Source: a plasmid
Length of the DNA stretch: 64,000 nucleotides
Reading direction: 5' to 3' (one strand)
Sequence record: NZ_CP097382.1
The first letter of the stretch is position 1. Each line of letters starts with the position of its first letter. A program made the position numbers and the translations under genes. Below, in pieces: positions 9,973-63,777 of the stretch. The notes beneath the pieces were generated by a model. The model was not told the DNA's origin, ran no database searches, and saw only the letters and a program-made list of their open reading frames with translations.

Positions 9973-10001
9973 CACTCTCTATTTTAGTCCAAACCAAAAA
10001 A

Positions 10002-10033: not shown

Positions 10034-10092
10034 TAGATAAGCGTAAGCGACTCATTTAGACCGTCTATCTGTATTCCTCCAGTTAGTGGAAA

Positions 10093-12204: not shown

Positions 12205-12352
12205 TTAATTGGAAATCAAAGTATGGTGGCATGGAAGCGAATGATGTTAAACGATTAAAAGAGCTTGAAGATGAAAATGCGAAACTGAAAAAGCTCTTTG
12301 CGGAAGTTAGCCTTGAAAACCACGCGATGAAGGAGCTTTTCGCAAAAAAGGG

Positions 12353-13198
12353 TTGGTAGTGGCTGAAAAGAGATCCTGTGCTCAATCATTAAAAGAGGCA
12401 GGCTTATCAGTCATTAAGGCTTGTAAGCTAACGTCGTTGTCACGAGCCACGTTTTACCATCAGCAAATAGATTGGCGTAAAAAAGACCAAGTAGTGATCG
12501 ATGCCATACAATCTGTGTTAGCGAAATCACCACAATCGGGATTCTGGAAATGCTATTTCCGACTGAGATTTCAAGGCTATCCTTTTAATCATAAACGAGT
12601 TTATCGCGTTTATTGTCGATTAGGATTGAACCTGAAACGGCGGGTTAAAAAAGTGCTTCCGAAGCGTGAAAAAAGACCATTAGTGATAGAAAAAGTCCCG
12701 AATATTCAATGGGCATTGGATTTTATGCACGACAGTTTATATTGCGGTAATCGCTTCAGAACTCTCAACATTATTGATGAAGGAACGCGTGAATGCTTGG
12801 CGATTGAGGTTGATACGTCATTACCGGCTGAACGCGTCATCAGGGTGCTTGAACGTTTAAAAGCCGAAAGAGGGTTACCGAAACAGATCCGAGTCGATAA
12901 TGGCCCTGAACTCATTTCAGTTAACTTATTGAATTATTGTGAAGATAACCAAATTTTACTGTGCCATATTCAACCGGGAAAACCGCAGCAAAATGGGTTT
13001 ATCGAACGTTTTAATGGTTCGTTCCGTCGAGAGTTTTTAAATGCGTATTTATTTGAATCATTAAGCCAAGTGCGAGAATTAGCGTGGTTTTGGCTGCAAG
13101 ATTATAACCAAAATCGAACCCATGAAAGTTTAAATCACCTCCCACCGGAGGCCTATCGTCAACAGTTAGAAAACTCTAATTTAACGTGTCTCAATTAA
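12353..13198 (+). CDS. IS3-family transposase orfB (integrase core, expressed by -1 frameshift)
   Basis: DDE integrase core (…IDEGTRECLAIEVD…HSDNGPE-like NGPELISV…). Confidence 0.8.
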   Translation: MVVAEKRSCAQSLKEAGLSVIKACKLTSLSRATFYHQQIDWRKKDQVVIDAIQSVLAKSPQSGFWKCYFRLRFQGYPFNHKRVYRVYCRLGLNLKRRVKKVLPKREKRPLVIEKVPNIQWALDFMHDSLYCGNRFRTLNIIDEGTRECLAIEVDTSLPAERVIRVLERLKAERGLPKQIRVDNGPELISVNLLNYCEDNQILLCHIQPGKPQQNGFIERFNGSFRREFLNAYLFESLSQVRELAWFWLQDYNQNRTHESLNHLPPEAYRQQLENSNLTCLN

Positions 13199-41689: not shown

Positions 41690-42169
41690 TTATTTTCAAA
41701 CGCTAGGCGAGTTAATATATAAATCAATTTATTATAATATTTCATGGTGTTTTTATAAAATTAGCTTTTCATTATAAAAGCAGTCACAGTAAGGCCTAAT
41801 AGGGTACTTGAGAACAAATAGGAGCATGGCCAAATAACCCAAAATAAGCGTATTTACTTGTTTTTATTTGTGCGTATATTACAAAATAATACAAATTATA
41901 AATATGTGTTTATCCTAGATTAATGTTTTGTTTTTTAATTGTTTATGATTTATTATTCTGCGTTTGGCTTGTCAATTTTTGACTAATTAAAATTTAAAAA
42001 AATTAACTAACCTAACTTACCTAATGATATGTAGGTAAAATTAAAGGGTATTAAAAATTGTAACATGAGAGTAATTAAGTAAAAGTTCGATAGGAGACGG
42101 TTTGATCTTTAAGTTTTACACCTTATAATTGTACCCGCTTGCTTAAACCCGTTATGAATTTTATATTTA

Positions 42170-42195
42170 TTTAATTACTAATTTTAAATTAGTAA
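42170..42195. promoter_or_regulatory. near-perfect palindrome immediately upstream of the operon-2 regulator gene (candidate operator)
   Basis: aattactaatttt aaattagtaatt is a dyad of 12 + 12 bp that ends about 30 bp before the ATG at 42226. Confidence 0.4.
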
Positions 42196-42225
42196 TTGTT
42201 TTCAATTACTGGAAAGATTACTAAT

Positions 42226-42558
42226 ATGAAATTTGAAAAGAATAGCATTAATAGTCAGTGCGATAATCTATTTTCAATTTACTGTGGAGCTGTTATTAAA
42301 AAGATCAGAAAAGAGTGTGGGATGACTGGCACTGAACTGGCAAGAAAATTAAATGTTTCACAGCAACAGATGTCTCGGTATGAACGAGGTATTAATAAGA
42401 TTTCAATAGATATGTTATTTAATTTATCAATGGCATTGAATGTCCCATGTGAAAAAGTAATTAAAAATGCTTTACTTGAAATGGAAAAATCAAATTGTGA
42501 TGACGAGTTAATATTGAAAAAATTATTAATAGCTTCTAATACCGTCCACTTTTATTAA
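42226..42558 (+). CDS. MrpJ-family HTH regulator, first gene of fimbrial operon 2
   Basis: ATG with a GGAAAG RBS (the ORF-track start at 42196 is a TTG). Carries the ELARKLNVSQQQMSRYERGINKIS motif. Confidence 0.8.
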   Translation: MKFEKNSINSQCDNLFSIYCGAVIKKIRKECGMTGTELARKLNVSQQQMSRYERGINKISIDMLFNLSMALNVPCEKVIKNALLEMEKSNCDDELILKKLLIASNTVHFY

Positions 42559-42639
42559 TCATAGTTAAATAAATATTTTTTAGTAATAGTAGTAATAGAA
42601 GTAAATCAAGTTGTTTGTTTATAAATCATTGAGGAATAT

Positions 42640-43170
42640 ATGAAGAAAATATTATTATTAGCACTAGTTTCTAGTGCTATGAGCACTTCTGTACTTGCTG
42701 CAGATATGGGCCATGGAAAAGTGAATTTTAAAGGCTCTATTATTGATGCACCATGTTCTATTTCACCAAATTCAATTGATCAAACTGTTGAGCTTGGACA
42801 AATATCAAATATGGCTTTAGTTAATGGTGGTAAATCTACTCCACGTAATTTTGACATCTCTTTAGAAAATTGTGATTTAACTGACGTAGAGAAAGGTGTT
42901 CAATTAACATTTAGTGGTGCAGCGGCTTCATTTGATAATTCAAACAAAACGTTAGGTATCGTTGGTACTGGTGCAGGAGCAGGCATACAAATTACAAATG
43001 GTGGCGGGAATGTAATTACGTTAGGTACACCAATACCATTCCAAAATATTCAAGATGGGAATAATACCCTGCGTTTCTCGGCGTATTTAATGGGTAATGG
43101 TGGTGATATTAAAACTATTACTGCCGGTGAATTTAGCTCCGTAGCTGACTTTACGCTGTCATACGAATAA
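42640..43170 (+). CDS. fimbrial major subunit (MrpA-like)
   Basis: 176 aa with a signal peptide, a GKVNFKGSIIDAPCSI motif and a C-terminal FTLSYE. Confidence 0.9.
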   Translation: MKKILLLALVSSAMSTSVLAADMGHGKVNFKGSIIDAPCSISPNSIDQTVELGQISNMALVNGGKSTPRNFDISLENCDLTDVEKGVQLTFSGAAASFDNSNKTLGIVGTGAGAGIQITNGGGNVITLGTPIPFQNIQDGNNTLRFSAYLMGNGGDIKTITAGEFSSVADFTLSYE

Positions 43171-43246
43171 TCAATATTTAGTAGCTAGCAAAAAAGGATA
43201 TTTTGCTGGCTTATTTCAAATGGAAGCCAGCGTAGGAGAGGAAGCA

Positions 43247-43783
43247 ATGAAATATTTAATGATCAGTAAACTGCTTTCGTTGAGTCTTAGTATGTATTCT
43301 CTCATAAATATTTCCCCTGCCAATGCGCTAGGTTTGGTAAAGATGAGTGGCAGTATCATTGAAACAGCCTGTGCTATTGATGTTGGTAGCCGTGATCAAA
43401 CTATTAATATGGGAAGCCTCTCTCTGAGTGATATCCGTCGAGATGGTCAAGGCCCAGTACATCCGTTTGTTATTAAGTTAGTTAATTGTGTTCTTGAACG
43501 TCAAAACCCGAATAAACCTAATTGGCAATACTTTCGAGTCACCTTTGATGGTGCACATCAACACGGATTATTTAGTGTGAATGGTCAAGCCAAAGGTGTT
43601 GGACTACAAATTCAACGTAATGATGGCAGAGAAATTATTGTTCCAGGACAAGCTCTATCTGCTCAAACTTTGACGCAAGGCTCCCGTGATTTAGCTTACG
43701 AATTAAGGTTGGTAGCTAATCATACTCCATTAGTATCAGGGCAGTACTACAGCCAATTAAGCTTTAAATTGGATTATGAATAA
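43247..43783 (+). CDS. MrpB-like fimbrial subunit
   Basis: GAGGAAG RBS, a signal peptide, a GSIIETACAI motif and a C-terminal FKLDYE. Confidence 0.75.
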   Translation: MKYLMISKLLSLSLSMYSLINISPANALGLVKMSGSIIETACAIDVGSRDQTINMGSLSLSDIRRDGQGPVHPFVIKLVNCVLERQNPNKPNWQYFRVTFDGAHQHGLFSVNGQAKGVGLQIQRNDGREIIVPGQALSAQTLTQGSRDLAYELRLVANHTPLVSGQYYSQLSFKLDYE

Positions 43784-43877
43784 TTCAATTATTAATTTTA
43801 TATGTCAAAACCAAGTATTGATTTTGAATAAAAAAGCTAAATGGTTTTATTAATAAAAAAGAAATAAGAAGGTCGAG

Positions 43878-46538
43878 ATGATGGCCCTAGGTTTTATTCA
43901 TATGCCGTTGTTACGGGTAAGCCGTCCTCGGTTGATGGGACTACTTATTGCTTTATCCCTAAGTTGTAATAGCTACGCTGAGCAGATTGAATTTAATACG
44001 GATATTTTAGATGTCAATGACCGCGCAAATATTAATTTAGCTCAGTTTTCACGTCCAGGCTTTTTAATGCCAGGAGAATATCGTTTTTCTATTTTTATAA
44101 ATAAGCATCAACTACCTGAACAAACCGTATTTTATTATGTACCCGATGGTCAGCCAGATGAGAGCGTGGCCTGTTTAAGCCCTACATTAGTTGAGCAACT
44201 CGCGCTTAAACCTGATTTATTGCCAACCCTAAAATGGTGGCATGATGGGCAGTGTTTATCACTAGAAAGCTTACCGGGCACTGAAGTTAAAGGGGATTTA
44301 GCTGCTTCCGCTTTATATGTCAGTTTACCACAAGCATATTTGGAATATACAGCCGAAAACTGGGATCCACCTGCTCGTTGGGAAGATGGATTACCTGGCG
44401 CTCTTTTTGATTATAACCTCAATGCACAGGTTGGTCAGCAAACTCGAGGCGGACAACGAACAAATGTCAGTACCAGCGGTAATGGTGTTGCGGGTGTTAA
44501 CTTAGGTGTATGGCGTATGCGTGCTGATTGGCAAATGCGTTTAGACAAACAGCAAGGACAAGATACTTCTAGTTCATTAGATTGGACTCGATACTATGTC
44601 TATCGTGCAATTAAATCTCTCGGGGCAAAACTCACTTTAGGTGAAGATTATTTAGCCTCAGATATTTTTGACAGTTTTCGATTTACGGGACTCAGTCTGA
44701 TCACCGACATCAATATGTTACCACCTAATTTACGGGGATATGCCCCCGAAATAACAGGTGTAGCTAAAAGTAATGCTACCGTTATTGTGAGTCAGCAAGG
44801 CCGTATTATTTATCAAACACAAGTTGCCGCTGGCCCTTTTCGTATTCAAGACTTAAATGATGCACTATCCGGTGAGATTAATGTTGAAGTTAAAGAACAA
44901 GATGGCTCAATTCAAACGTTTACGGTGAATACAGCCAGTGTTCCTTATCTCACTCGCCCAGGCCAAGTACGTTATAAGCTTGCCGCTGGACGTCCAACTG
45001 ATTGGCGCCACCATGTGAGCGGTGAAACGTTTGCCAGCAGCGAGTTTTCGTGGGGAGTAAATAACGGTTGGTCATTATATGGTGGCGGCGTTGCAGCGGA
45101 GAATTACACTTCCGTTGCGGTTGGTATCGGTCGAGATCTGATGACGTTTGGCGCGCTGTCTTTTGATATCACCCATGCGCGTTCACGGTTAAAAGGGTTA
45201 ACTGAAGTCGGCGATAAAACGTATCACGGTAATTCATATCGTTTGAGCTATTCAAAACGATTTGATGCCTACAATAGCCAAGTGACATTTGCGGGATATC
45301 GTTTTGCTGAGCAAGGTTTTATGAGTATGTCTGAGTACTTAAATGCCCAGTCTACGGGTGTCCGCCAGTATAGCAGTAAGGAAATGTATACGGTTTCCTA
45401 TAACCAACAATTTCCGGAGTTGGGGCTCAGTGCTTATATAAATTATTACCATCAAACCTACTGGGATCAGCCTGATAATGACCGTTATAGTCTGTCTTTA
45501 GCACGTTATTTTGATATCGGGAAATGGAAAAATTTAAGTGTTAACTTGACGGCTTATCGAAATCGTTATCGGCAGACTAATGATGATGGGGCCTACCTTT
45601 CCTTTTCATTGCCTTGGGGGGAGAGTGGCTCGCTTAGCATGAACAGCAGTTGGGATGAGAGTGATAATTCTCAACGAGTCAGTTATTACGATCGATTAGA
45701 TGAACGTACTAATTACCAATTAAGTACCGGATGGTCTCGTTCTGGTGGGTTAGTGAGTGGTTATTACACACATCAAGCTGATTTGGCTCAAATCAATGCA
45801 AATGCCACTTATCAGCAAGATAGATATCGTTCTGCTGGCTTATCACTTCAAGGTGGTTTTACGGCGATTAAGCAAGGTGTGGTGATGCATCGTGGTAATC
45901 AGCTTGGGGGGACTCGAATTTTTGTTGATACGGATGGTGTTCCGAATATCCCATTACGAGGTTATGGCTCAACTATTCGAACAAACTATTTTGGTCAGGC
46001 TGTATTAACAGATGTGAACAGTTATTACCGTAATCAGGTCAGTGTCGATTTAAATACATTACCTGAAGATGCTCAGGTATCACAATCGATTAAGCAAGGT
46101 ACCTTAACAGAAGGTGCTATTGGTTACCGCCAGTTTGATGTTGTCGCTGGACACAGTGCAATGGCCTTATTGCGTTTATCTGATAATAGGTTCCCCCCAT
46201 TTGGAGCACAAGTTTTCAATATAAAAGGCCAACAAGTGGGAATGGTGGGGGATGATGGGAGTACGTATTTAACGGGGCTCAACCCTAACGATAAATTACA
46301 AGTTCGTTGGGATGACAAAGCACAATGTGAAATCACCTTACCTAAAATATTACCGAAGAGCGACACGTTGTTAACGAATTGGTTATTACCGTGCGATGCG
46401 ACTGGCATCTTACCCATAGAGCAGACACAGATAGTTGTTGAATCGAATACAGCCAGTTTACCGTCGCCTCATTCATTAATTTCTGAGGCATCAGATAAAC
46501 CGGGTTTGGCCAGCTCAGCGAGCTGGTTAAGAAAATAA
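43878..46538 (+). CDS. fimbrial usher (MrpC-like)
   Basis: 886 aa with the conserved usher blocks. Confidence 0.92.
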   Translation: MMALGFIHMPLLRVSRPRLMGLLIALSLSCNSYAEQIEFNTDILDVNDRANINLAQFSRPGFLMPGEYRFSIFINKHQLPEQTVFYYVPDGQPDESVACLSPTLVEQLALKPDLLPTLKWWHDGQCLSLESLPGTEVKGDLAASALYVSLPQAYLEYTAENWDPPARWEDGLPGALFDYNLNAQVGQQTRGGQRTNVSTSGNGVAGVNLGVWRMRADWQMRLDKQQGQDTSSSLDWTRYYVYRAIKSLGAKLTLGEDYLASDIFDSFRFTGLSLITDINMLPPNLRGYAPEITGVAKSNATVIVSQQGRIIYQTQVAAGPFRIQDLNDALSGEINVEVKEQDGSIQTFTVNTASVPYLTRPGQVRYKLAAGRPTDWRHHVSGETFASSEFSWGVNNGWSLYGGGVAAENYTSVAVGIGRDLMTFGALSFDITHARSRLKGLTEVGDKTYHGNSYRLSYSKRFDAYNSQVTFAGYRFAEQGFMSMSEYLNAQSTGVRQYSSKEMYTVSYNQQFPELGLSAYINYYHQTYWDQPDNDRYSLSLARYFDIGKWKNLSVNLTAYRNRYRQTNDDGAYLSFSLPWGESGSLSMNSSWDESDNSQRVSYYDRLDERTNYQLSTGWSRSGGLVSGYYTHQADLAQINANATYQQDRYRSAGLSLQGGFTAIKQGVVMHRGNQLGGTRIFVDTDGVPNIPLRGYGSTIRTNYFGQAVLTDVNSYYRNQVSVDLNTLPEDAQVSQSIKQGTLTEGAIGYRQFDVVAGHSAMALLRLSDNRFPPFGAQVFNIKGQQVGMVGDDGSTYLTGLNPNDKLQVRWDDKAQCEITLPKILPKSDTLLTNWLLPCDATGILPIEQTQIVVESNTASLPSPHSLISEASDKPGLASSASWLRK

Positions 46539-46590
46539 AAAATAACATGATTGAAGAAGGTTATCCCTCCTTCATACTAAGGTAAAAAAT

Positions 46591-47367
46591 ATGTTACAGA
46601 GTAATAAAACCAATAAAAAAAATCATCATCTAATTGCCATTTTTTTGGTTGGAGCAGTGTTGATATCCGGGACACTGTCTTCCGCGCAAGCTGCAATCGC
46701 TTTAGATCGCACACGTGCAATTATGACGGGTGAAGATAAATCTATTAGCTTAAATATCAGTAATGAAAATAAACAATTACCTTATTTAGCGCAAGGCTGG
46801 ATTGAAAATGCCCAAGGTGAAAAAATCACGGAACCTTTTACAGTATTACCTCCCGTTCAGCGTGTTGAACCTGGTGCTAAAAGCCAAGTAAAAATTCAAG
46901 CACTACCGAGTGTTGCGTCACTGCCGCAAGACAGGGAATCCGTTTATTATTTCAATTTACGTGAAATCCCACCTAAAAGTGATAAACCGAACACACTTCA
47001 GCTGGCATTACAAACGCGAATTAAGTTGTTTTATCGCCCAAAGGCGATTATTCCAACTCGCCAACAAATGGAGAATCCATGGCAAGAAAAAATCACCCTC
47101 ATTCGTCAAGGTGACCAATACAGTGTGGAGAATCCAACGCCGTATTTTGTAACGCTTGTTGATGCTGCTTCAGTGAAAGATGGAAAAACAGTCGCGGGGT
47201 TTGAACCGTTGATGGTTGCACCTAAAAGCAGTTTGCTTATGGGGGGGAGTACTAAAGCCTTAGGAAGTAAGCCTGTACTCACTTATATCAATGATTATGG
47301 TGGGCGACCAACGTTGATGTTTACTTGTCAAGATAATCGCTGTCATGTGGTATCAGATAAACAGTAG
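46591..47367 (+). CDS. periplasmic fimbrial chaperone (MrpD-like)
   Basis: 258 aa. PapD-like with LPYLAQGWIEN and FNLREIPPKS motifs. Confidence 0.92.
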   Translation: MLQSNKTNKKNHHLIAIFLVGAVLISGTLSSAQAAIALDRTRAIMTGEDKSISLNISNENKQLPYLAQGWIENAQGEKITEPFTVLPPVQRVEPGAKSQVKIQALPSVASLPQDRESVYYFNLREIPPKSDKPNTLQLALQTRIKLFYRPKAIIPTRQQMENPWQEKITLIRQGDQYSVENPTPYFVTLVDAASVKDGKTVAGFEPLMVAPKSSLLMGGSTKALGSKPVLTYINDYGGRPTLMFTCQDNRCHVVSDKQ

Positions 47368-47414
47368 CTTAGAACAAGATGACGTTAAAGCAGATTTCAA
47401 CGCAGGAGAGCCTC

Positions 47415-48023
47415 ATGAAAGAAGCAAATAAGATCCCTCATTGTATGATGGCGTGCGGTTTAGGATTGTCCTTACTCAGTAGCACAGCACTCAGTACTGA
47501 ACTCGATAAAGTGGATAACTGGGATGTCGATGGTGCTAATGGCACATTATATGTACACGGAGCTTTAACGGAAAGTGCTTGTCGATTAGCGATGTCGTCA
47601 GCATATCAAACAGTTGAACTGGGGATATTAGGCACAGGGCAATTACAGAAAGTTGGTCAAACAGGTACCCCTATCGCGGTACAACTGCGTTTAGAAGATT
47701 GTTTAAGTGGTGAAAGTCGTAATCGTAATAAACTCGGAAACTTATTGTGGAGTCCTGATATGCCTGCAATGAAAATTCGTTTTTTGGCAGAGGCGGACAA
47801 TCAAAGCCCACAATTAGCTGCCGTTACGGGGGCGCAAGGAATCGCATTACAATTGAGTAATGCTTCTTATCATCCTATTGCAATAGGGGAATACAGTACT
47901 CCTGAGCTAGTTTCTCCAGGGCAGAATCAATTGACCTATTATATTACCCCGATCCGTACTACAGCAGGATTAAGTTCGGGAGCTTATCAGGCAATTATTC
48001 GCTTTCAGGTCAGTTATGATTAG
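47415..48023 (+). CDS. fimbrial minor subunit (MrpE-like)
   Basis: AGGAGA RBS, a signal peptide and a C-terminal FQVSYD. Confidence 0.75.
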   Translation: MKEANKIPHCMMACGLGLSLLSSTALSTELDKVDNWDVDGANGTLYVHGALTESACRLAMSSAYQTVELGILGTGQLQKVGQTGTPIAVQLRLEDCLSGESRNRNKLGNLLWSPDMPAMKIRFLAEADNQSPQLAAVTGAQGIALQLSNASYHPIAIGEYSTPELVSPGQNQLTYYITPIRTTAGLSSGAYQAIIRFQVSYD

Positions 48024-48032
48024 GAGTTAACG

Positions 48033-48569
48033 ATGTTATTGATACAGCATGCGACCATAGGGATTAAAGGCTTTATTACGCTCAGCTTTCTTTTTTTTAG
48101 CTCGCTATTATTTGAAAGTCTATTTCATGTCGTACGTGCGGACACTGCAAATCTGAATTTAACGTTGACCATTACGATGCCTCCACAGTGTACGTTTGGT
48201 GGTGGTAGTTCAATACAAATTGTACGTTTTGAAGAGGTACAACAAGGATTAATTGATGGAGTGAGTTATAAGCGAACCCCTATTGATACCGGATTATCTT
48301 GCCGTGCATTAGAAAAAAATGCGTTGAATATGGCGTTGTCATGGGATCCGGTAACCTTTAATGGCGTTTCTGCTATCAGTACAAGCCGAACAAATTTGGG
48401 TATTGCCATTTATCGGGATTCGACTCGCTTAAGTAACGGCGCATCAATTAACTTTACTTACGGTAATCCTCCGAACTTGTACGCAGTACCGATAAAACCT
48501 AGCGGTATGATGCTTAGTGATGCGGGATCTTTTACTGGCACAATGACAGTGACGTTAAATTATCAATAA
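48033..48569 (+). CDS. fimbrial minor subunit (MrpF-like)
   Basis: Signal peptide and a C-terminal TVTLNYQ. It is a tandem paralog of the next gene. Confidence 0.75.
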   Translation: MLLIQHATIGIKGFITLSFLFFSSLLFESLFHVVRADTANLNLTLTITMPPQCTFGGGSSIQIVRFEEVQQGLIDGVSYKRTPIDTGLSCRALEKNALNMALSWDPVTFNGVSAISTSRTNLGIAIYRDSTRLSNGASINFTYGNPPNLYAVPIKPSGMMLSDAGSFTGTMTVTLNYQ

Positions 48570-48584
48570 ATGTGGGACTATCTC

Positions 48585-49082
48585 ATGAATAATACTCTCT
48601 TTGTTCGGTGTTTTATCGGCCTGCTTTGTTTATTAAGTCCGATATTATCACGAGCATTGGATGTCTATTTTACAGGAACATTGGTTGTCACGCCGCCAGA
48701 ATGTACCGTGAATAGTGGTACTGTGGCAGATGTCAATTTTGGCGATATCCATGAAACACTGATTGACAATAGCAGTTATAAACGCACACGTATTGATTAC
48801 ACGTTAAATTGTACGAATGTCTATAGCAATGCATTAAAGATGACGGTCAGCTGGAACCCGATTACGCTCAATGGGCAAAATGTTATTCGTACTGGTCGGA
48901 CGAATCTCGGGATAGCGGTTTATCAGAATTCGACTCGATTAAGTAATGGTGATGTTGTGAATTTCACTTATGGTAGCAATCAACCTGCACTTTATGCAGT
49001 ACCAGTAAAACCCTCGGGAACGGTATTAACTGATGGCGGAAATTTTAATGGGACATTAACTTTTGTGGTGGATTACCGTTAA
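48585..49082 (+). CDS. fimbrial minor subunit (tandem duplicate of 48033-48569)
   Basis: Shares SYKRT.ID, TNLGIA.Y..STRLSNG and YAVP.KPSG blocks with the previous gene. Confidence 0.75.
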   Translation: MNNTLFVRCFIGLLCLLSPILSRALDVYFTGTLVVTPPECTVNSGTVADVNFGDIHETLIDNSSYKRTRIDYTLNCTNVYSNALKMTVSWNPITLNGQNVIRTGRTNLGIAVYQNSTRLSNGDVVNFTYGSNQPALYAVPVKPSGTVLTDGGNFNGTLTFVVDYR

Positions 49083-49092
49083 GGAGAACAAG

Positions 49093-49590
49093 ATGAAATT
49101 TATTCACCGACAACAAGTAGCTCTCTGCTTTTTTTGTGTAATAAGCTCTCCATTTGCATTGGGGTTAGGGGCAAATCTTTACGGTAATTTAATCGTGACG
49201 CCACCTGAATGTATTCTAAATAACAATAATCAAGCGGAGATTCATTTTGGTGATATTTTATTAACGCGCATTGACGGTAATAACTACTTACAAACATTGC
49301 CATTGAGTCTATCGTGTACAGGATTAGCAAAAAATAATCTGACATTGATCTTAGAAGGCGACCCTACATTGTTTAATAGCAATGGCGCATTAAAAACAAG
49401 CAATGATAAATTAGGCGTTATTTTTTATGTTAACAATATCAGGCAAGCAATTAACCAGCCGGTGAATATTAATTATACTTCTTTGCCTTCTTTAAAAGCT
49501 GCGCCGATTAAAAATATGACTGCAAGCTTTAATGATACAGATGGTGGTAGTTTTACTGCATTGGCGACATTAAAGGTGGACTATCAATGA
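49093..49590 (+). CDS. fimbrial minor subunit
   Basis: AAGGAGAA RBS, a signal peptide and a C-terminal TLKVDYQ. Confidence 0.75.
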   Translation: MKFIHRQQVALCFFCVISSPFALGLGANLYGNLIVTPPECILNNNNQAEIHFGDILLTRIDGNNYLQTLPLSLSCTGLAKNNLTLILEGDPTLFNSNGALKTSNDKLGVIFYVNNIRQAINQPVNINYTSLPSLKAAPIKNMTASFNDTDGGSFTALATLKVDYQ

Positions 49591-50111
49591 AAAAGTCACT
49601 GATAAGCACAAGTCAACGTTATTGTTATTTATGCAGTTTAGGAGGGCTCTTCATGATGATGTCCTCTGCAGTGGAAGCCAATTGGTTTTTTGATGGTACG
49701 CTAATACTGCCCCCCGCCTGTGAATTAGGACAAAAAAATCCTATACGTGTTTCTTTTGGAAAGGTGGGGGTGCGTAAAGTGGATGGGAATTTATTTAAAC
49801 AAGACATACCGTATCAATTGAATTGCCAAGGTGACTTAAAGCAACCGTGGAATGTGACATTGACGTTCAGTGGAACACTCGCGGGTACGGGATTTGATAA
49901 TGCGACATTACAAACAAGCAGCCCTATGAATAACGGAAAATTAGGCATTCAAATTCAAAAGGACGGGATACCGTTAGAACTGAACAAGGCGTTTGCAATT
50001 AATAGTTCAAATCTACCAAAATTATCGGCGGTTCCGATTAAGCGTGCAGGATCGGAACTGGTTGGTGATAATTTTTCTGCGACAGGGACATTGACCATCG
50101 ATTTTCAATGA
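49587..50111 (+). CDS. fimbrial minor subunit
   Basis: Signal peptide and a C-terminal TLTIDFQ. The start overlaps the previous stop. Confidence 0.7.
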   Translation: MKKSLISTSQRYCYLCSLGGLFMMMSSAVEANWFFDGTLILPPACELGQKNPIRVSFGKVGVRKVDGNLFKQDIPYQLNCQGDLKQPWNVTLTFSGTLAGTGFDNATLQTSSPMNNGKLGIQIQKDGIPLELNKAFAINSSNLPKLSAVPIKRAGSELVGDNFSATGTLTIDFQ

Positions 50112-50125
50112 CACGATAAAAGGAA

Positions 50126-50677
50126 ATGAGAAAAATGCAAATACCATTACGTCAATTATGGCCTTTAGTCTTGTCACTAAGTTTAGTTGGAGGCCCGCTT
50201 TGTGCGCGGTCGGAAACCGTACAATTTGATGGAACATTGGTTGAGGACGCCTGCGAAATATATCCTGGCGATGAAAATATCGAATTGGATTTTGGCACTA
50301 TTGTAGACAAATATTTGTATTTGAATACACGAACACACAGCCAGCTATTTACAATTAGGTTAATTAATTGTGATTTAGTGTTGGGTAAAGAAGTTCAAGT
50401 AACCTTTATGGGAACTGAAAGTGCAGCATTACCCGGATTATTAGCACTTAATGCAGGGAGCAAAGCAAATGGGATCGCTATTGGTTTTGAAACTCAAAGT
50501 GGTGAACCTATCTCGTTAAATAGATCAAAAGACTACACTCAACAGCTCCAAGCCAGTGGCACCAATAACATCAATTTGAAAGCTTATGTTCGAGGCGAAC
50601 CTATCGCCCTTCGCGATAAATCAATTACACGCGGAACTTTCGAGGCTACTACCACTTTTATTCTTGAATATGAATAA
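50126..50677 (+). CDS. fimbrial minor subunit
   Basis: Signal peptide, a Cys pair and a C-terminal FILEYE. Confidence 0.7.
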   Translation: MRKMQIPLRQLWPLVLSLSLVGGPLCARSETVQFDGTLVEDACEIYPGDENIELDFGTIVDKYLYLNTRTHSQLFTIRLINCDLVLGKEVQVTFMGTESAALPGLLALNAGSKANGIAIGFETQSGEPISLNRSKDYTQQLQASGTNNINLKAYVRGEPIALRDKSITRGTFEATTTFILEYE

Positions 50678-51201
50678 CTCTAAAGAAATGACTAATTTTT
50701 GTTAATTATTCAAAATCACAATACCACATAAATATAACAGGAGTTATATATGTCAAAATATAGAATGAAGACAATCTTATATAGTATTTCCATTAATCAT
50801 CAATTTTAATAATTCAGCTAATTCAACTGTAGGTTTTGGTCATAGGCCTTACATGAACGCAGCTGTCAGTAACTGTGGTATAGGACAGATGATAGGAATA
50901 GGATACAACGCACAGGGAAGTGGCGAAATTATATCAGAATTGGGTTGGGAGCATTTGAGGCGACGACAGCTTTTATGTTGGAGTAAGAGTGATTGGGGTA
51001 CCATTAGGAAAAATATATGAAATATTAGTATTGTGGTTAAAATAGATTTCATACAAAAATAGGTTGTGTATTTTTGTATGATTATTTTAATCATTTTTAT
51101 ATATAGTGAAGATAGTGATATGAAATAATGAAATTAACTCATCATCACCTATTATATATTATTTAAATAACCGGTCATAATGATTTTAAAAAAGGACGTA
51201 G

Positions 51202-55090: not shown

Positions 55091-56716
55091 TTACAACAAA
55101 GGCGGGGTTGTTGGAATAATAGGAACTTCAATGACAGTAGGAACTGAACGAGAAAATGCTTCCTTACAGATTTGGTTGATTTCATCTAATGTTTCAGCTC
55201 GTACACCAACACAGCCGTAACCTTTTGCCAAAGAAACAATATCTAAATCAGGTAAATCTAGACCCGGAACGCCAGGTGAATTTTCTAATTTTGCAAAAGA
55301 TTTCAAAATTGCATATTCACCATTACGTGGCACAACAAACAATATTGGTAATTTAAGCTGAGCAGCTGTCCATAAACCTTGAATTGAATATTGCAAAGAA
55401 CCATCACCAATAATGGCAAGAACCGGACGATTTTTACCGCTATCTCTTTCAGCTAATGCAATACCAATACTCGCGGGTAAATTCCAGCCAAGGCTTCCAC
55501 TGGCAAAAGTATAAAAAGAATCGGGTTTATCAATTGACCATGCGGTATGTAACTCGCCAAGGTTAGAGGGTGATTCTTCAACTAATATTGTATTTTCAGG
55601 TGTAAACTCACGCAAACCTTTAAAGAGTTCTAATGCTGAAAGTTGTTCACCTTCTTGCTGTTCTGCCGCAGGGTGGGGAGACATTCTGTGTGATTGTTGT
55701 GGTATTTTAGGAGGTGTTGCTGTACGTTTTTGTACTCGGTTGAGTAATGCTTCTAGTGCTAATACTGGGCTAGATAATAGGCTGTCACCAACAGGTGCTT
55801 TTCCTGATTCATTAGGATCATCTGTAATATGCAATAACTGCAATCCTTCTGGAATGTACTCACCCGCTACATAGGGATAATAACGGAATATTGGTGCTCC
55901 AATGACAATAGCAACATCATAACCTGCTAATTGTTTTGATAATGGCTCAATAGCAAAAGGCAAGCCACCTGCATACAGTGGATGAGTTTCAGGGAATGAT
56001 GGCACTTCAGAAGCCGGTGCGCTGAATACATGGCAATTCAATTTCTCGGCTAATTGAATACCGATATCCCAACCTTGTCCACGAGCAATCCCAGCGCCAT
56101 AAATAAGAGCCGGATTTTTAGCTGTTGAAAGAAGATCAGCAAATTGAGAAATGAGAATAGGATCTGGAGCATATCGTGATGCTACGCTCCGCACAACGGC
56201 ATCTCCTAGCGCAGGTTTATCCCAATCATCTAATGGAATAGATAAAAAGACAGGACCAGCAGGTGGCTGTAATGCCATCGCGTAAGCTCGCATAAATGCA
56301 GCAGGTACATCTTCAGCTCTGACTGGTTCATAGCTCCATTTTATCCAGGGTTTAGGCAATTCTGTAGGTGAAACGTTAGTTAACCATGGTTCCATAAGTA
56401 ACATTTCTCGCGTTTGGTTTCCAGCGGTAATAATTAATGGTGTTTTATTTTGTGCCGCTGTCATGATGTTACTCATTGAGTTACTTAAACCTGCAGAAGT
56501 ATGGACGTTAACAATCGCGGGTTTACGAGTTGCTTGTGCATAGCCATCAGCAGCACCAACTGCGGATGATTCGTGTAATGTTTGCACGTAACGGAAATCT
56601 TCAGGAAAATCCTTTAAAAAAGTTTCCTCAGTTGAGCCTGGATTACCAAATAAAGTAGTTAATTCAAGTTTGCGTAGTAAATTAAAAGTGACATCACGAA
56701 TAGTTTTTACCTTCAT
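55091..56716 (-). CDS. thiamine-diphosphate-dependent 2-keto acid decarboxylase, benzoylformate decarboxylase (MdlC)-like
   Basis: 541 aa. [26 protein letters not shown]... is a near-match to the MdlC N-terminus [20 protein letters not shown]. A TPP-binding GDGS...N motif ([12 protein letters not shown]) is present. Confidence 0.75.
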   Translation of the reverse strand: [541 protein letters not shown]

Positions 56717-57046: not shown

Positions 57047-58048
57047 TTAATGAACTTGTGTCACTCAGAACCTCGGCTGACGTTTGGTCTTAAAGACCAA
57101 GCTTATTTTTTAACACTTCATACGGTGTTTTACCAGCATGAGCTGAGTGGGGGCGATGACAATTATAAAATGCCTCCCATTCAGCTAATTTTTCATGTAA
57201 ATCGACATCATCCTTATAATCGATTAATTGATAAAATTCCTGTTTATCTGTTAAATGAGAACGCTCTACTTTCCCATTCAATCTGGGGGTAGCTGGCTTA
57301 ATATAGACATGCTCCATCCCTAGATCATGAATATGCCAATTAAATTTAGACTGGAATTCGTGCCCATTATCCGTTCTAATCGTTTTGATTCTAAAGGGAA
57401 ATTTATTTACAACATAATTAATAAAATCAATAGCATTAGCCTGATTGTGCCTTTCATAAATTTTAAGTGCTCTGATCCGTGTCGCATCATCAATTGCTGT
57501 ATATTGAAAACGTTTAATTCGTTGTCCATCAGGCGTATTAAAAAATAAAAACTTCACATCGACCTGAACATGGTGCCCTGGCACTTGTTTCTGATAACGT
57601 TTAAATAGTGGTTTAGAGCGACTTCGCTGATTTTGGGGAAGTTGGTTTAATTTGTTTCTGAGCAATACATAATAGCAGCCAGAGCGTGATATTTTGATGT
57701 TATGAAACCGTAGAAGATACCAAGCGATACGTTGGGGACCAAAATGGTAAGTCGTACGCAGATAAATAACCAGCTCTTCGATGTGTTTTGCAACTCTTCT
57801 GGTTGGATTTTCAGGGCAGGGTTTATTGTTGATTAATCCTTTCTCGCCATCTCGTTCATAAGCTCTTTTCCAAGTATAAAAAGTTTCTCTACTGATCCCA
57901 AAATGACGACAAGTTTTAGCAATATTTTTGCTCTCACGGGCATGATTTAAGATTTTTGTTTTATGTGCAATATCTCGTTTAGCTTTAATGTTCATCATAT
58001 CTGACCTCCGGCTACAATTAGAAAAAACTAATTGTCAACCGAAGTCCA
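57047..58048 (-). mobile_element. IS481-family insertion sequence (intact)
   Basis: 302-aa DDE transposase (57090-57998) and imperfect terminal IRs (GAACCTCGGCTGAC / GTCAACCGAAGTCC). Confidence 0.85.
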
Positions 58049-58255: not shown

Positions 58256-58612
58256 TTGTTTATGTGGGAAATATTAACGAGAGATCTCTTTGATTCTTGG
58301 TTTGAAGAACAAAACGAGGAAACTCAGATTGAAGTGTTGGCGGTGTTAATGATTTTGCGCGAGGATGGTCCAAACCTTGGCCGGCCCCAAGTCGATACAC
58401 TGAAAGGCTCACAGTTTCCCAACATGAAGGAACTGCGAATCCAGGTTGGCGGTCATCCAATTAGAGCGTGTTTTGCATTTGACCCTATACGCCGTGGTAT
58501 TGTGTTATGCGCGGGTGATAAAAAAGGAAAAGACGAAACCCGTTTCTATAAGAAATTGATCAAGATGGCTGATGCTGAATATGCAGCGCATCTATTAGAG
58601 CAGGAGAAATAA
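58256..58612 (+). CDS. higB: HigB-like type II toxin (RelE/ParE superfamily)
   Basis: 118 aa, toxin-first arrangement, with the ...MKELRI...GGHPIRACFAFDPIRRGIVLCAGDKKG motif. Confidence 0.65.
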   Translation: MFMWEILTRDLFDSWFEEQNEETQIEVLAVLMILREDGPNLGRPQVDTLKGSQFPNMKELRIQVGGHPIRACFAFDPIRRGIVLCAGDKKGKDETRFYKKLIKMADAEYAAHLLEQEK

Positions 58613-58613
58613 C

Positions 58614-58913
58614 ATGTCCACTTTAGATAAACTACTTGCAAAACAATCCCCTGAAGCACGGGCACAAATCGAAGCAAGAGCTGAAGAAATTCGGCGTGAA
58701 ATAACGCTGGCAAAAATTCGTGAGGAACTTAATCTTTCTCAAACGGAGCTGGCTCAATCACTGGGCGTTTCACAACCTTCTATTGCTAAGCTTGAGAAGG
58801 TTGATAACGATCCTAAGCTTTCAACTCTAAAGCGCTATATTAAAGCTTTAGGTGGTGAACTTTCTATAGATGTCACGCTACCTAATGGTAAGCGGATAGG
58901 ATTGAGTTTATAA
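58614..58913 (+). CDS. higA: HigA-like XRE-family HTH antitoxin
   Basis: 99 aa. The start overlaps the toxin stop. HTH motif LNLSQTELAQSLGVSQPSIAKLE. Confidence 0.65.
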   Translation: MSTLDKLLAKQSPEARAQIEARAEEIRREITLAKIREELNLSQTELAQSLGVSQPSIAKLEKVDNDPKLSTLKRYIKALGGELSIDVTLPNGKRIGLSL

Positions 58914-59095: not shown

Positions 59096-60373
59096 TTAAT
59101 TAAATCCATATTTTTCTCTTCGACGATTGAATGCGTCTTTACCGCCTTCGAGTATTTTTGCGGCTAATGACTGTATTGATTTTTGATCTATCGAGCCTTG
59201 ATTATTTTTTGGTAGTGCCGCGCTGTCTGCTGTTGCTTCAAGAACACCAATCCATTCAGCATCACCAAATACTGGAATATTTGCATTATGTGTAGCGAAA
59301 ATGAATTGTCGTGTTAATTTGGCACTTCTCACCTGAGACACTATTCTGTCGGCAATAAATGCGTTGTCTAGGTTATCTTCGGGTTGGTCTAGTAACAGAG
59401 GATCTTTGTTATCTAGAAGCAACAAATGTAGTAAGGCTGTACATTGTTGACCCGTTGATAATGAGTTGAGAACTTTATAAATAGGTGTAGGTGTCTCGCT
59501 GCTGGAAACATTGAGTTCAATACTTACTAAGTCTTCAACGATAAATTCTTCAATCTCCATGATTTGAGATTCTGAAATTTTAGTTAGCTGCTCCGCAACA
59601 GATTCTGTACAGCCCCAATTTTGTGTGAGGATTGCGTCTTTACCTTCAATAATTTTTTCTGCTAATAGCATTGGAGAGAAATGCTCTGCGGTACTAATCC
59701 ACTGAAGCTTTTTGTTAGCAACGTTTGGCATTCTGAAGGATACGAGTTTGTCAATTAAAGAATTGCGATTCCCCTCTGGAGTATAGTTTACTTTTATGTT
59801 GCCTTTCAGCTTTCGATTTAGTTTTTTCACACCTTGTTCAAATTGACTACTTCGCTGAGACATTTTGTTCGAGAGCGAAGACAGTAATATTTTCCTCATA
59901 GCTACCATTTGAGCGAGTTTAGTTTTTGACTCGATTAATTTTGTTTTGCTCGATTTCAACAGCGCAATGTCTTTCACTAACTGGTTATATTCATCACCAA
60001 TCTGAGAGCCTGTTTTTCCAGCTATAGGGCTAATCTTCTTAAACTCTTTTTCTATTGTAGCCTCATTGGCTTGAATACTTGTATCAAGGCGCTTTTCTAG
60101 TTCAACTATCGCGATATTGTCGCTAGCAAGTCTAGTCATTGCTTGCCCTAGCATAGTACCTAAATCTTTGTTCAAATTTGTGATGATGTTTCTAAGTTCT
60201 CTAAAGATTAATATATCGGGAAAATCCTTGATATCTTCTTCCAAAATGTAGTCTGTTGAGGGAATACCTTCTACCATCTCACCTAATGCGGTGGAAAAAT
60301 CAAAAAGCATTTCACTTACGGTTCTAAATAGCGTTTTCTCTGATGCGAGCAACGGCAAAATTTTTAGTTGTTC
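59096..60373 (-). pseudogene. C-terminal segment of a Rad50/SMC-like ABC ATPase (Ppl-like gene), cut from its 5' part by IS91 copy B
   Basis: A coiled-coil region followed by an ABC signature LSTGQQCTALLHLLLL, a Walker B LLLDQPEDNLD and an H-loop ATHNANI. The apparent N-terminus MFIQFPNH is encoded by IS91 terminal sequence. Confidence 0.75.
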
Positions 60374-61815
60374 ATGGTTAGGAAACTGGATGAACAATTT
60401 AACGAGTCTATAAGGGTATGTTTGGTAGCAGAGTCTGTTAAAAGGTCTCTATCGTATTTAAACTTAACCATGATAACGCGTAATTGCGCTATTTTTAGCC
60501 AAAAACGGGGGTTTTAGATACACTGATCCTAGGCGGCTGTTTGCAGCCATCGTTTTTTGGCCATTTTATCCCGCCTTTCTGACAGTAAAGTGAGTGCGTG
60601 TATGCCTTTTTCCGCACTCATAAACCGCAGTCGGTTTCCACATAAAATACATTGATACGGATCTGTGTTTAAAAAACCTTTGATAAGGGCCGCAAAGCCG
60701 GGTTTTTCAGGTACGTTCGGATGTATCATGTCCAATGCGTCATACACTTTAGATAATAAACGCCCACGCTTGCGATTGGCTAAAAAACCATAATAGCGGA
60801 TCATCTTAAAATGCCGCGCGGGGATATGACTGACATAACGTCGTATCATTTCTTCTTGGGACAAGGTCTGTCGTCGATATTGTTGGCTATGGTGATCATA
60901 ATAATGATGGATGACTGTGCCACCGCTGTAGTGTTTCAACTGAGACGCCGAGATAGGCGGACGTTTTAGGTATCGGCCCAGATATTTCACATTATGCCAA
61001 GCGCCTCGGGTCTTTTTGGCAAAATGGAGTTTCCAATAACGTTGAAACTGTGCATTGAGGTAACGACACCAGGTTGGGTAATCGCGAATATGCCCGAAGC
61101 CAGGCAATTTATTCGGTTGTAACTGAGCATAATTGTCTCGAAGGAGCCGAATAACGGCGCTGCGCCAGACTTTCTCGACGTCTTTCTTTTTGAAAAAAAT
61201 GGGTTTCCAGGTGTCATATTTTGTGAGACCGCCTCGGGTCACCGACAAATGAATATGCGGATGTTGATTAAGTTGGCGACCATAAGTATGCAAGGCACAA
61301 AAAATACCAATTTCGAGGCCATGACGTCTGGCGTGTTTGAGCATAGCTCGCGTGGCACAGCGAAATAGTTGATTAAGTAAGGTCCAGTTGTTGTTAAAAA
61401 AAGACCAAAGCAGGTGGGGCATCGTGAGGGTGATGTGTTGCCATTCGCAGTCTGGCAAAATATGGCGCTGCTGTGCGATCCATTGTTCGGTGCCCTTGAG
61501 GCCACAGGCACTGCAGGCTTTGGATTTACAGGTTTGACAAAAGAATCGCGAATGCGTGCATTCAGGAGAAGAGCAGCAATAGCGGCGAACACCCATCGCG
61601 CAGGTGCTACAAGCGAGCATCTTTTCAACACAGAGGAGTTGCCATTCATCGACAGGGTTGTTATCAATGAAGCGGTTCCATCCGTCATCGTATTGAAATA
61701 GCAGTTTAGCGGGTCTGGGAATATACATAGAGCAGAGTATAAAAGACGAGAAGGGAGTTGCCTAGAAATAGAGCGGCTCAGCCGCGATGCTCACGCCACA
61801 GGCGTGCTTATGTTC
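60374..61815 (-). mobile_element. IS91-family insertion sequence, copy B (identical to copy A)
   Basis: 1442 bp with an identical 399-aa transposase (60529-61728). Confidence 0.9.
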
Positions 61816-63179
61816 ATCAATTCCCAATTCCTAAAAGCGTTTAGCATCCTCTTCCAGTTGTTCAAGCCGTTTAACATCGGACTCAAGATCTGATGACTGG
61901 ACTGTTAAATCTACTATTTTCTGCCTGACCTGAGCTAAATCGTCTACAATTTTGACAACGCCAAACTCTTGCTCAATCTTGCCCCTGTTCAAGAATCTAT
62001 CGACGACTTTTAACTGTTCACTAGAATCTTTATCAATTTCATGAATTTCATTCTGTCCAAATATTTCGATTTCTGGCAATAAATCACTAGGTACGAAGCT
62101 TGATATTTGCCCTGACATTTCTGTAATAATAGGAGATTGTCCATACCTCCTTGTAATCTGATAGTTATTACCATGCTTAGTTGTCGACTTTATCGAAAGT
62201 TTGATTTGTCCAGTGCTTAAGTTCGATTTGACTATTTTCTCGTGTTGTTCACTGGCTTGCTTGCCGATTGGAGTAATATCGAGCGCGTAACGAATACATT
62301 CAAACCCGTACCTCTACCTCCAATAACGGTATTTAGGTGTTCGGAAAAGTCTATTTCGACGCCGCCTAAGTACCCGCCAATAAAAACAACAGACTCCAAC
62401 CTAGAGTAATACTGTTCGCTGATGTCTGAGTTTAATCTGACCCTTGATTCTGGATCATTAAATGCTTGCTTAAATGCTGAAAAACTGGGTATTGTCATTT
62501 TGATTAAACACGACGCGTTGTCTTTCCTTAAAGTTTCAGGCTCTTCAATATCCTTTGCGTTAATTAACGCCATAGGAACATTTCGATGATACGCCATGTC
62601 TTTGTTTGTCAGAATTTGAAAGTTTGCTTGGTCACCTTGTTCTTTTATTGCTTGAAGTGTTGTCGGGATTTGAGCTGCAACTAATAACTCATTTTTCCAA
62701 ATATTGTTCAGTTTTTGTTTGAGTACCCCATTGTCGTCTGTGCAATGGGCTGCATATATGAATCCTCCTTTATCACGCACTTTATTTAAAATATAGTCTG
62801 CACTATGTGGTGAAGGCAATGTGCCTTGGTTAGGATCAATATTTAGTTCGTAAAGATAGTGCTCAAGATTTTTAACTGTTTCGTCTTCATGAAAAAGACA
62901 AACTAAATGCACCTTTTCACTCGACGCAATTTCAAACCCTGGAAAAACAACAATGCCATGCTTGGACATTAAGGCTCGAATTTTGTTTACTTAGCCAACA
63001 TTTCCGTGGTCTGCAAGGCCAACAACTTTGATGTTTTCTTCAAGGCAAACTTCTAGAAGTTTTTGGTTGTATTCATCCCCAGTCAACCCTTGTTGTTTCC
63101 CTCTATAACTAATGTAGTTCGAGGGATTAACTTGAAGTGCACATTTCCAAAATTTTGCTTTAGTGAACGTTGGAATCAT
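61816..63179 (-). pseudogene. 5' segment of the same gene: PHP-domain N-terminus plus ABC ATPase N-terminal region (in-frame TAA at 62988-62990, +1 frameshift near 62290)
   Basis: PHP motif II GLADHGNV, then a stop, then motif III FPGFEIASSEKVHLVCLF. Downstream in the same frame is ...VEIDFSEHLNTVIGGRGTG (ABC N-terminal strand plus P-loop start). The shifted frame continues ...IRYALDITPIGK... through a coiled coil (…RLEQLEEDAKRF) to the IS91 junction. Confidence 0.65.
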
Positions 63180-63555
63180 AAATATCCCTTTGCATTTTTG
63201 ACTAAATTAAGCTTAAGTTTTCATCAATGTTAATTCATTTTAAGGTTTAAACTGTATCTTTTTCAGAATATTGCTGATCATTATTGTGCGATCTATGCTT
63301 TGCTTCATCTTTTTGCTCAAAGCTGACTATCAGTGTTGATTATAATCTACGAGATAAATATTTAATCGCGCCAAACTCCATTCGCCACTCCATTCAAGAA
63401 CCTTCCATTGTGATTTAAATGACAGTGTATCGTTTAAATCAAAAATATAACTCCAATGATATGAAAATTGATAACTAAAATATACTTATTATATAGTTAT
63501 ACTTAAATGGTATGTTGAAGGTTCTTAATGTAAGAATAAGATAATCTTTTAGAAA

Positions 63556-63600
63556 ATTTCGCATGCGAAATTCATTGCATATCAATATTGATATGCAATG
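63556..63600. promoter_or_regulatory. adjacent perfect palindromes (18 bp AATTTCGCATGCGAAATT and 28 bp CATTGCATATCAATATTGATATGCAATG)
   Basis: Both dyads read identically on each strand. The TTTCGCATGCGAAA core recurs at 63762-63777. Confidence 0.8.
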
Positions 63601-63761
63601 AATTTATGATATAATCCCCTCAAGATATGAATTTAGATTCATAGCTTTCAAAGATACATGAAGTTGTGTCTTTTTAGGCGAAACGCCTGACTCATAGGAG
63701 TGGATATGAAAATTGATATTAATATAAGTATATTCTTGTCACACCACACCTTTCTCAACAT

Positions 63762-63777
63762 TTCGCATGCGAAATAC
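63762..63777. promoter_or_regulatory. 16-bp palindrome ATTTCGCATGCGAAAT 13 bp upstream of the ParA-like start (candidate operator)
   Basis: A perfect dyad that overlaps the 3' end of a 24-codon mini-ORF (63706-63780). Confidence 0.6.

Follow-up and report, generated by a model that had tools for sequence, protein, structure and literature searches.

A decayed TrlF-family gene on a Providencia-type plasmid and its relation to Ppl

Ppl was reportedly described by Gao et al. in 2020 as a single-gene anti-phage system. Three later texts (PMC12904381; PMC13434339; bioRxiv 10.64898/2026.05.12.722862) present it as a single-stranded DNA (ssDNA) 3'-5' exonuclease that is inhibited by nucleoside triphosphates (NTPs) and triggered by 3'-OH overhangs; for this mechanism PMC13434339 and the bioRxiv text cite Xu et al., Mol Cell 2026. 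The other described relative is Photorhabdus trlF, which lies in the Temperature Restricting Locus (TRL; trlR-trlF-trlG) together with trlR and with trlG, a gene for an AlbA_2 plus HATPase_c_4 protein (bioRxiv 10.1101/2020.06.02.129163). Here we describe a gene of this kind in a 64,000-nucleotide stretch of the plasmid record NZ_CP097382.1 (henceforth the window), where positions 59096-63179 of the minus strand are what is left of a single dead gene, about 888 codons long, in a Providencia-type plasmid backbone beside parA/parB. The joint reading that we favour, with a probability of roughly 85%, is that of a dead single gene for a fusion of a PHP domain with an SMC/Rad50-like ATPase, belonging to a partner-less ("solo") clade of the TrlF family and broken by three small lesions and later by an insertion sequence (IS) of the IS91 family. 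In other words, the locus is a pseudogene like many others, from a family that has a name already, and there is no working system in it.

The intact protein resembles Ppl in that a stand-alone gene encodes a polypeptide of about 880-900 aa, in which a PHP domain at the N-terminus is followed by an ABC ATPase with a coiled-coil insert at the C-terminus, and the two are homologous over their full length. The likeness to Photorhabdus TrlF is closer: length and architecture are the same, and the sequences are 46-48% identical. The gene differs from both, as shown below, in ways that concern the PHP site in the case of Ppl and the neighbouring trlG gene in the case of Photorhabdus.

The broken gene and its intact ortholog

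A megablast search against plasmids found the intact counterpart on a Providencia stuartii plasmid (CP099528.1, 25151-27799), where it is one open reading frame (ORF) of 882 aa (USR67206.1, labelled 'DNA repair protein' in GenBank). Once positions 60374-61815 are excised, the window aligns with this ortholog from end to end at 90.0% nucleotide identity (2373/2636), and just two gaps are left: the window lacks 13 bp, and relative to the ortholog it has a harmless in-frame insertion of 6 bp. The repaired window protein is 86.9% identical to the ortholog at the amino acid level. Moreover, more than 100 of the listed homolog clusters consist of one polypeptide each, about 883 aa in length. The original prediction of one large broken gene on the minus strand is borne out by this alignment, and all the pieces and motifs that it named are present in the minus-strand translation. 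Neither outcome that it had named as a refutation was seen, since the PADLOC Ppl model does match the repaired protein (E=7e-34) and the orthologs do not consist of separate adjacent genes.

According to the ORF list and the three-frame translation, the gene survives as four collinear protein pieces, separated in order by a stop, a frame change, a second stop and the inserted element. The first piece (62994-63179, codons 1-62; delimited from the ORF list, the translation and alignment to the ortholog and to Ppl) holds the start of the PHP-like domain with CALQVNP, i.e. Q-V-N in the place of H-x-H, and motif II, GLADHGNV. The second (62304-62990; translation, ortholog alignment and a Foldseek search with ortholog residues 1-262) comprises the remaining PHP-like domain with the equivalents of E83, H91, H145 and D210, a linker, and the beginning of the ABC ATPase, that is its first strand and the start of the P-loop, the last residues being ...NTVIGGRGTG. 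Along with GLADHGNV, the motifs FPGFEIASSEKVHLVCLF and VEIDFSEHLNTVIGGRGTG are found on this N-terminal side. The third piece (61834-62301; translation and ortholog alignment) is in a different frame from those with FPGFEIASSEKVHLVCLF and VEIDFSEHLNTVIGGRGTG; it runs from ECIRYAL... to ...EEDAKRF and contains the remaining N-terminal half of the ATPase and the start of the coiled coil, a long helical region. The fourth (59096-60373; translation, ortholog and family alignments) provides the remaining coiled coil and the C-terminal half of the ATPase with the signature LSTGQQ, the Walker B motif LLLDQPEDNLD and the H-loop FATHNAN, supported by invariant columns of the family alignment, and it ends at the native stop codon (59096-59098). 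Note that the P-loop half and the signature/Walker B half are never found together in one piece.

The gene had been predicted to be broken in three places; the break stands, while the count becomes four with an additional TAG codon. The lesion nearest the start is a TAA (62991-62993) where two intact orthologs have TCA (Ser63), as seen from the ortholog alignment and codon comparison. An in-frame TAA between PHP motifs II and III had indeed been predicted, but at 62988-62990, three nucleotides from its true site. The next lesion was originally taken for a +1 frameshift near 62290. Nucleotide alignment with CP099528.1 shows instead a 13-bp deletion at 62303/62304 (AAATCAACTTTGA in the ortholog), which takes four residues (Lys-Ser-Thr-Leu) out of the Walker A motif GGRGTGKST in addition to shifting the frame, and so does greater harm than the +1 frameshift would have done. 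The TAG itself stands at 61831-61833, close to the inserted element, where the same comparison gives AAA (Lys454) in two intact orthologs; because both carry AAA there, the TAG is a nonsense mutation and not a native gene boundary, a choice that the original prediction had left to such an alignment. With a stop codon inside the PHP domain, the Walker A lysine deleted and the two ATPase halves split, the activity proposed below for the intact protein would be impossible in the window.

The fourth lesion is a 1,442-bp IS91-family element on the minus strand (60374-61815) with a transposase ORF at 60529-61728. This insertion was predicted correctly: its removal gives back the ortholog sequence exactly, and five empty-site alleles confirm it. 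The transposase is of the Y2/HUH type with a zinc-binding N-terminus (Y2_Tnp PF04986, 152 bits; Zn_Tnp_IS91 PF14319, 56.6 bits; NCBIfam transpos_IS91 NF033538, 302 bits). IS91 inserts beside a GAAC/CAAG tetranucleotide without true target duplication. A second copy of the element, 100% identical, is present in the window at 36412-37859 (1,448 bp), and both copies have GAAC before them and ...CATGAAC(AA) at the end, so that the junctions fit an IS91 insertion beside GAAC in the coiled-coil region of the gene. Because GAACA stands at both junctions, the ends of the element are uncertain by 5-7 nucleotides. The second copy directly adjoins a truncated ORF (156 aa, 35864-36334) that belongs to another IS91-like transposase, so elements of the IS91 family may have inserted in tandem or one inside the other at 35864-37859.

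The order of events can be read from related plasmids. An exact-sequence look-up of the 245-aa fragment of the gene returned 20 public contigs, five of which were fetched (L090-L094). All five match the window at 100% identity over 63300-61811 and over 60375-59000, bear the TAA, the 13-bp deletion and the TAG, and are without the IS, the clean 1,442-bp difference lying at GATGAACAACTA. As they have the three small lesions and lack the IS, inactivation preceded the arrival of IS91, and the insertion is the youngest lesion, specific to the lineage of the window. The locus thus shows a Providencia plasmid lineage that carries and spreads a dead allele. When the window allele is compared with the P. 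stuartii ortholog, the ratio of replacement to silent divergence (dN/dS) comes to 0.227; an intact control pair with the same dS (0.28) has a ratio of 0.169. Such a modest excess of replacement changes is expected if most of the divergence came before inactivation, i.e. if the decay is recent.

Family placement and predicted folds

With the NCBIfam model NF045780 ('TrlF family AAA-like ATPase', cut-off 350 bits) the repaired protein scores 497.7 bits and the ortholog 539.8, and the match extends over the full length (repaired residues 8-881 against model positions 3-944 of 944). Among the reference proteins, Photorhabdus TrlF scores 547.6 bits and a real Ppl, the protein of Vibrio rotiferianus pAM7 annotated as such by the Prokaryotic Genome Annotation Pipeline (PGAP), 508.9. 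Because genuine Ppl lies above its cut-off, NF045780 is in effect a superfamily model for PHP plus ABC-ATPase fusions with Ppl as one specialised branch, and since the model contains Ppl, the annotation 'TrlF family' does not imply a TRL-type operon. The family is large, with at least 2,193 protein clusters at E<1e-5, nearly all of about 885 aa and from many phyla, and with 435 matches in one-genome-per-species contigs. The repaired protein, the ortholog and the fold searches agree on a single polypeptide with the PHP domain at the N-terminus and an ABC/SMC-like ATPase with a coiled-coil insert at the C-terminus. The window itself has no intact ORF of this family. The gene is inactivated, as had been predicted; the lesions are two nonsense codons, the 13-bp Walker A deletion and the IS91 insertion.

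The models made for Ppl itself give a different result. NCBIfam NF042955 aligns residues 70-876 with model positions 71-879 of 882, with scores of 155.8 bits for the repaired protein and 181.5 for the ortholog (E=1e-46 and 2e-54), which are below the cut-off of 1000, while the real Ppl scores 1445. Likewise, the PADLOC Ppl model (PDLC02208) yields 115 bits (E=7e-34) and 133 bits (E=3e-39) as compared to 879 for the real Ppl, and identity to the PGAP-annotated Ppl is only about 24%. The intact protein is Ppl-like in ancestry and architecture, a member of the same superfamily and of a different subfamily. The original prediction had matched the gene to the Ppl system; its architecture and full-length homology hold, its membership of Ppl proper does not. 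Sequence searches of the PDB with the ortholog and with family profiles returned Rad50/SMC heads only and no Ppl entry, and no Ppl structure was among the Foldseek matches of the full ortholog model.

The full AlphaFold (AF2) model of the ortholog, with a predicted local distance difference test score (pLDDT) of 82.3, matches the heads of SMC, MukB, JetC, Rad50, RecN and RecF with their coiled coils, and Rad50 was recovered by sequence-profile search too, in agreement with the Rad50/SMC-like ABC ATPase that had been predicted. What is shared with Rad50/SbcC, SMC, JetC, RecN and RecF, the top matches in both sequence and fold, is an ABC head that is interrupted by an antiparallel coiled coil and contains the Walker A, Q-loop, signature, Walker B and H-loop motifs. 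There are differences as well. The coiled coil of the window gene is short compared to Rad50/SbcC, about 250 residues in total, and the gene is accessory and mobile, whereas Rad50 belongs to core repair. Unlike in the Mre11/SbcD case, phosphoesterase and ATPase are joined in one polypeptide, and the fold of the phosphoesterase is PHP rather than calcineurin-like. The same general logic of an ABC ATPase joined to a nuclease-type effector is found in OLD, Gabija GajA, PARIS AriA, Septu PtuA and Lamassu LmuB; these give weak hidden Markov model matches confined to the P-loop and signature regions (14-48 bits), and their effectors are Toprim, HNH and others, where the window gene has PHP.

An AF2 model of ortholog residues 1-262 (pLDDT 70.4) has exclusively PHP-domain proteins as its top structural matches, including EndoQ (E=1.9e-5; template modelling (TM) score 0.57), the PHP domain of Pol III alpha and the RNase AM PHP protein, so a PHP fold of the N-terminal domain is supported at moderate strength by these models. 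The metal site is where the subfamily departs from Ppl. In the alignments Ppl has canonical ligands (FHCH ... SDH ... E ... H ... H ... TDSH), whereas CALQVN and a motif V without His are common to the window gene, its ortholog, the TrlF proteins of Photorhabdus and Citrobacter and a Staphylococcus plasmid homolog. The family alignments place C-A-L-Q-V-N (residues 13-18) at about 63126-63143 and the motif V region (residues 207-212), which reads D210-V-E/A in the subfamily, at about 62541-62558, both on the minus strand. The same proteins retain H58, E83, H91, H145 and D210, and Q16 and N18 are invariant across 24 sequences with identities down to 48%. More distant 'TrlF family' proteins, from Listeria and Cupriavidus, keep H-x-H. 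From these alignments the PHP site of the subfamily is either re-modelled or degenerate.

The solo clade and the case for an immune role

The presence of TrlG was investigated by tblastn over 88 fetched loci. Where TrlF is at most 50% identical to the ortholog, TrlG (SLFN_AlbA_2 + HATPase_c_4) follows 10-50 bp downstream in 70 of the 72 informative loci; where identity is at least 52%, it was found at none of 10 informative loci within the available flanks, and it gave no match in the whole 64-kb window. The partner-less set forms a single neighbour-joining clade (13 tips, bootstrap 80/100), and its TrlG-paired sister clade includes Photorhabdus TrlF. No other conserved neighbour of the solo clade was found at its 10 informative loci: a 332-aa ORF downstream of the Marinobacterium member occurs at no other locus, and the remaining neighbours are unrelated (transposases, HrpB, GltX, YhcG nuclease). 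By sequence, then, the window gene is placed in a stand-alone clade, just as Ppl is stand-alone. When TrlG itself was searched with PADLOC, the matches were all of Schlafen type, to proteins associated with pAgo, and none was to a named system. In the TrlG-paired clade, L045 and L080 show no detectable TrlG in 5 kb of downstream sequence, and the partner may have been lost independently at these two loci.

Several members of the family, among them the intact relatives closest to the window gene, have defence genes as neighbours. An intact relative, 85% identical to the window protein, lies between a BREX cluster (BrxR, BrxA, BrxC/PglY and a PglX-like methylase) and GAPS4 genes, and an Alteromonas relative adjoins an integrase and a Piwi (pAgo) plus SIR2 pair. 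The trlF-trlG pairs of the sister clade are found between hsdM/hsdS and hsdR, i.e. inside type I restriction-modification (R-M) operons, in at least 10 unrelated genomes (L008 at 530-13018, L020, L029, L044, L051, L070, L078, L081, L083 and L085). A further pair placed in this way is carried by a Citrobacter IncC plasmid (L098, 1-8646). This embedding in R-M operons points to a putative immune role of the Photorhabdus-type 'temperature restriction' module, and the defence neighbours taken together make an immune or abortive role of the family plausible.

The intact protein probably works as follows. By analogy with Rad50/SMC-type proteins, binding of nucleotide would bring about dimerisation of the two ATPase half-sites, which the antiparallel coiled coil joins, and these would engage DNA. 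The PHP-type domain at the N-terminus would serve, as suggested by Ppl, as a phosphoesterase (nuclease) effector or as a nucleotide-sensing module, and the protein would act against invading DNA or arrest growth. A broader proposal, which we put forward tentatively and at somewhat less than even odds, is that the TrlF family at large, both the solo clade and the R-M-embedded TrlF-TrlG pairs, consists of unrecognised Ppl-related immune or abortive modules with a re-modelled Q-x-N PHP site; on this view, the temperature restriction seen in Photorhabdus would amount to autoimmunity caused by such a module, and repeated inactivation on plasmids, as in the window, would be a sign of its cost. We note that we infer the anti-phage label for the subfamily by analogy. 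The locus itself matters little, since its copy does not function and NCBI has a name for the family already. Nevertheless, the clean split of the family into a TrlG-paired clade, often in type I R-M operons, and a partner-less clade, together with the conserved non-canonical PHP site of the core subfamily, unlike that of its characterised relative Ppl, makes for testable leads on a large family rather than findings on this locus.

A number of observations weigh against the reading given here, with respect to the PHP domain as well as to defence. The PHP phosphoesterase domain of the original prediction is upheld at the level of fold by the structure search, yet Pfam PHP (PF02811) remains below threshold for the repaired protein (16.8 vs 26.4 bits) and is not listed for the ortholog, and a profile search of the PDB for this domain was not significant (E=1.5, RNase AM PHP protein). 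The fold matches are moderate (TM 0.39-0.57 with a model pLDDT of 70). The domain is without four of nine canonical metal ligands: Q16 and N18 replace H-x-H, the Asp at the third position of motif I is missing, and so is the motif V His. Such a site weakens the direct transfer of the Ppl exonuclease mechanism, and a Ppl-like nuclease activity of the subfamily, to judge from its ligands, is not assured. Most neighbourhoods of the solo clade are mobile or variable DNA or housekeeping genes and not recognisable defence islands. In the literature we found no paper testing TrlF in phage defence, the name TrlF being used only by the Photorhabdus TRL preprint. In that preprint, the only functional study of a TrlF locus, growth arrest at 36 C is relieved by trlG and not by trlF mutations (bioRxiv 10.1101/2020.06.02.129163), so the phenotype maps to trlG.

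Three other explanations concern what the remnant was. That two or more native genes lie side by side here, for instance an SbcCD-like pair with the TAG as boundary, might be suggested by the gene callers, which give four ORFs (62, 245, 82-95 and 429 aa) in related assemblies; every intact relative, however, is a single ORF of about 883 aa, the TAG and TAA positions are sense codons (AAA, TCA) in two orthologs, the P-loop and signature halves of one ATPase fall into different fragments, and the nuclease-type domain has a PHP fold and not that of Mre11/SbcD, SbcD appearing in the fold search only at E>0.2. The ortholog alignment refutes the two-gene SbcCD-like reading, and we give practically no credence to any arrangement of this sort. 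It is also very improbable that the gene is a decayed member of Ppl proper working like E. coli Ppl, in which NTP depletion and 3'-OH overhangs set free a 3'-5' exonuclease acting on ssDNA. The stand-alone gene, the architecture and the full-length homology with the E-values given above would agree with this, but the scores of 156-182 bits fall far short of 1000 in NCBIfam, as do those of 115-133 bits of the 879 of the real Ppl in PADLOC, identity is about 24%, and the H-x-H and D-x-H ligands of Ppl are absent. Very improbable, too, is the remnant of a two-gene TrlF-TrlG module of TRL type that lost trlG by rearrangement. The pairing is the rule in the sister clade, Photorhabdus included, and the downstream side of the window is rearranged (toxin-antitoxin pair, IS481); against this, the 64-kb window holds no TrlG-like sequence, and the 10 informative intact relatives at 52% identity or more, all of one clade, have no TrlG in their available flanks either.

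The remaining two concern what the intact protein does, and both deserve more weight. A DNA-repair or plasmid-maintenance factor of RecN/Rad50 kind, not an immune protein, would agree with the Rad50/SMC/RecN-like fold, with the position beside parAB, umuDC and psiA in Providencia plasmids and with the solo-clade contexts, most of which are not defence islands. We consider it unlikely: the 'DNA repair' label in GenBank derives from similarity only, the family is patchy, mobile and often found inside type I R-M operons or beside BREX, GAPS4 or pAgo genes, its characterised relative Ppl is an anti-phage protein, and the dead allele on 20 contigs shows that the plasmid can do without the gene. The PHP-like domain of the subfamily could also be catalytically dead, acting only as a nucleotide or DNA sensor, with toxicity or defence coming from the ATPase or from a host partner. 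One of the fold matches, the PHP domain of E. coli Pol III alpha, is degenerate in a similar way and does not catalyse; moreover an invariant Q-x-N stands where H-x-H would be, and two more canonical ligands are gone. On the other hand, H58, E83, H91, H145 and D210 as well as Q16/N18 are invariant across phyla, a pattern that fits a still-functional, re-modelled metal site, and we therefore regard a dead domain as a minority possibility, though one to be taken seriously.

The plasmid setting

In related contigs the gene order is psiA, parB, umuDC, a korB/parB-like gene, parA, the gene fragments, higA/higB and IS481. This setting is a plasmid partition and maintenance backbone and not a defence island; the HigBA-like pair, the ParA-like gene, the palindromes and the plasmid setting of the original prediction are there, and only the defence island has to be given up. 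The toxin-antitoxin pair (58256-58913, plus strand) flanks the gene and is convergent to it. It consists of a HigB-like Gp49 toxin (58256-58612; Pfam PF05973, 67 bits) and an HTH_3 antitoxin (58614-58913; Pfam PF01381, 49.8 bits). On the other side is the divergent parA promoter/operator region (63399-63795), delimited by a repeat search and by parA as called in the ortholog plasmid and in L090. A perfect 16-nucleotide palindrome, ATTTCGCATGCGAAAT, occurs twice upstream of parA (63556-63571 and 63760-63775), and a perfect 38-bp palindrome (63568-63605) overlaps the best sigma-70-like promoter match (63588-63615). From their sequence and position these palindromes are likely partition or autoregulation operators.

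Besides the HigB/HigA pair, an IS481-family transposase (57090-57998) and a thiamine-diphosphate enzyme (55091-56716; TPP_enzyme_N/M/C in related contigs) are located downstream of the pseudogene, and this order is unchanged in the IS-free relatives L091, L092 and L094. On the P. stuartii plasmid, parA and the intact gene are separated by a hypothetical ORF of 295-363 aa without family matches (L001, 6403-7494); the window lacks this ORF, and its spacer is only about 610 bp. Family searches with the two proteins on either side of the P. stuartii ortholog, of 363 aa and 461 aa, gave no informative matches.

The window as a whole is an IS-rich mosaic with matches of the IS91, IS481, IS30 and IS3 types. 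Its first 10 kb are 98.3% identical to the Providencia rettgeri plasmid NZ_CP017672.1, and other parts match Providencia plasmids at 90-98%. Two chaperone-usher fimbrial operons are present, at 1-10046 and 42000-51000, with their ushers at 1574-4117 and 43878-46538.

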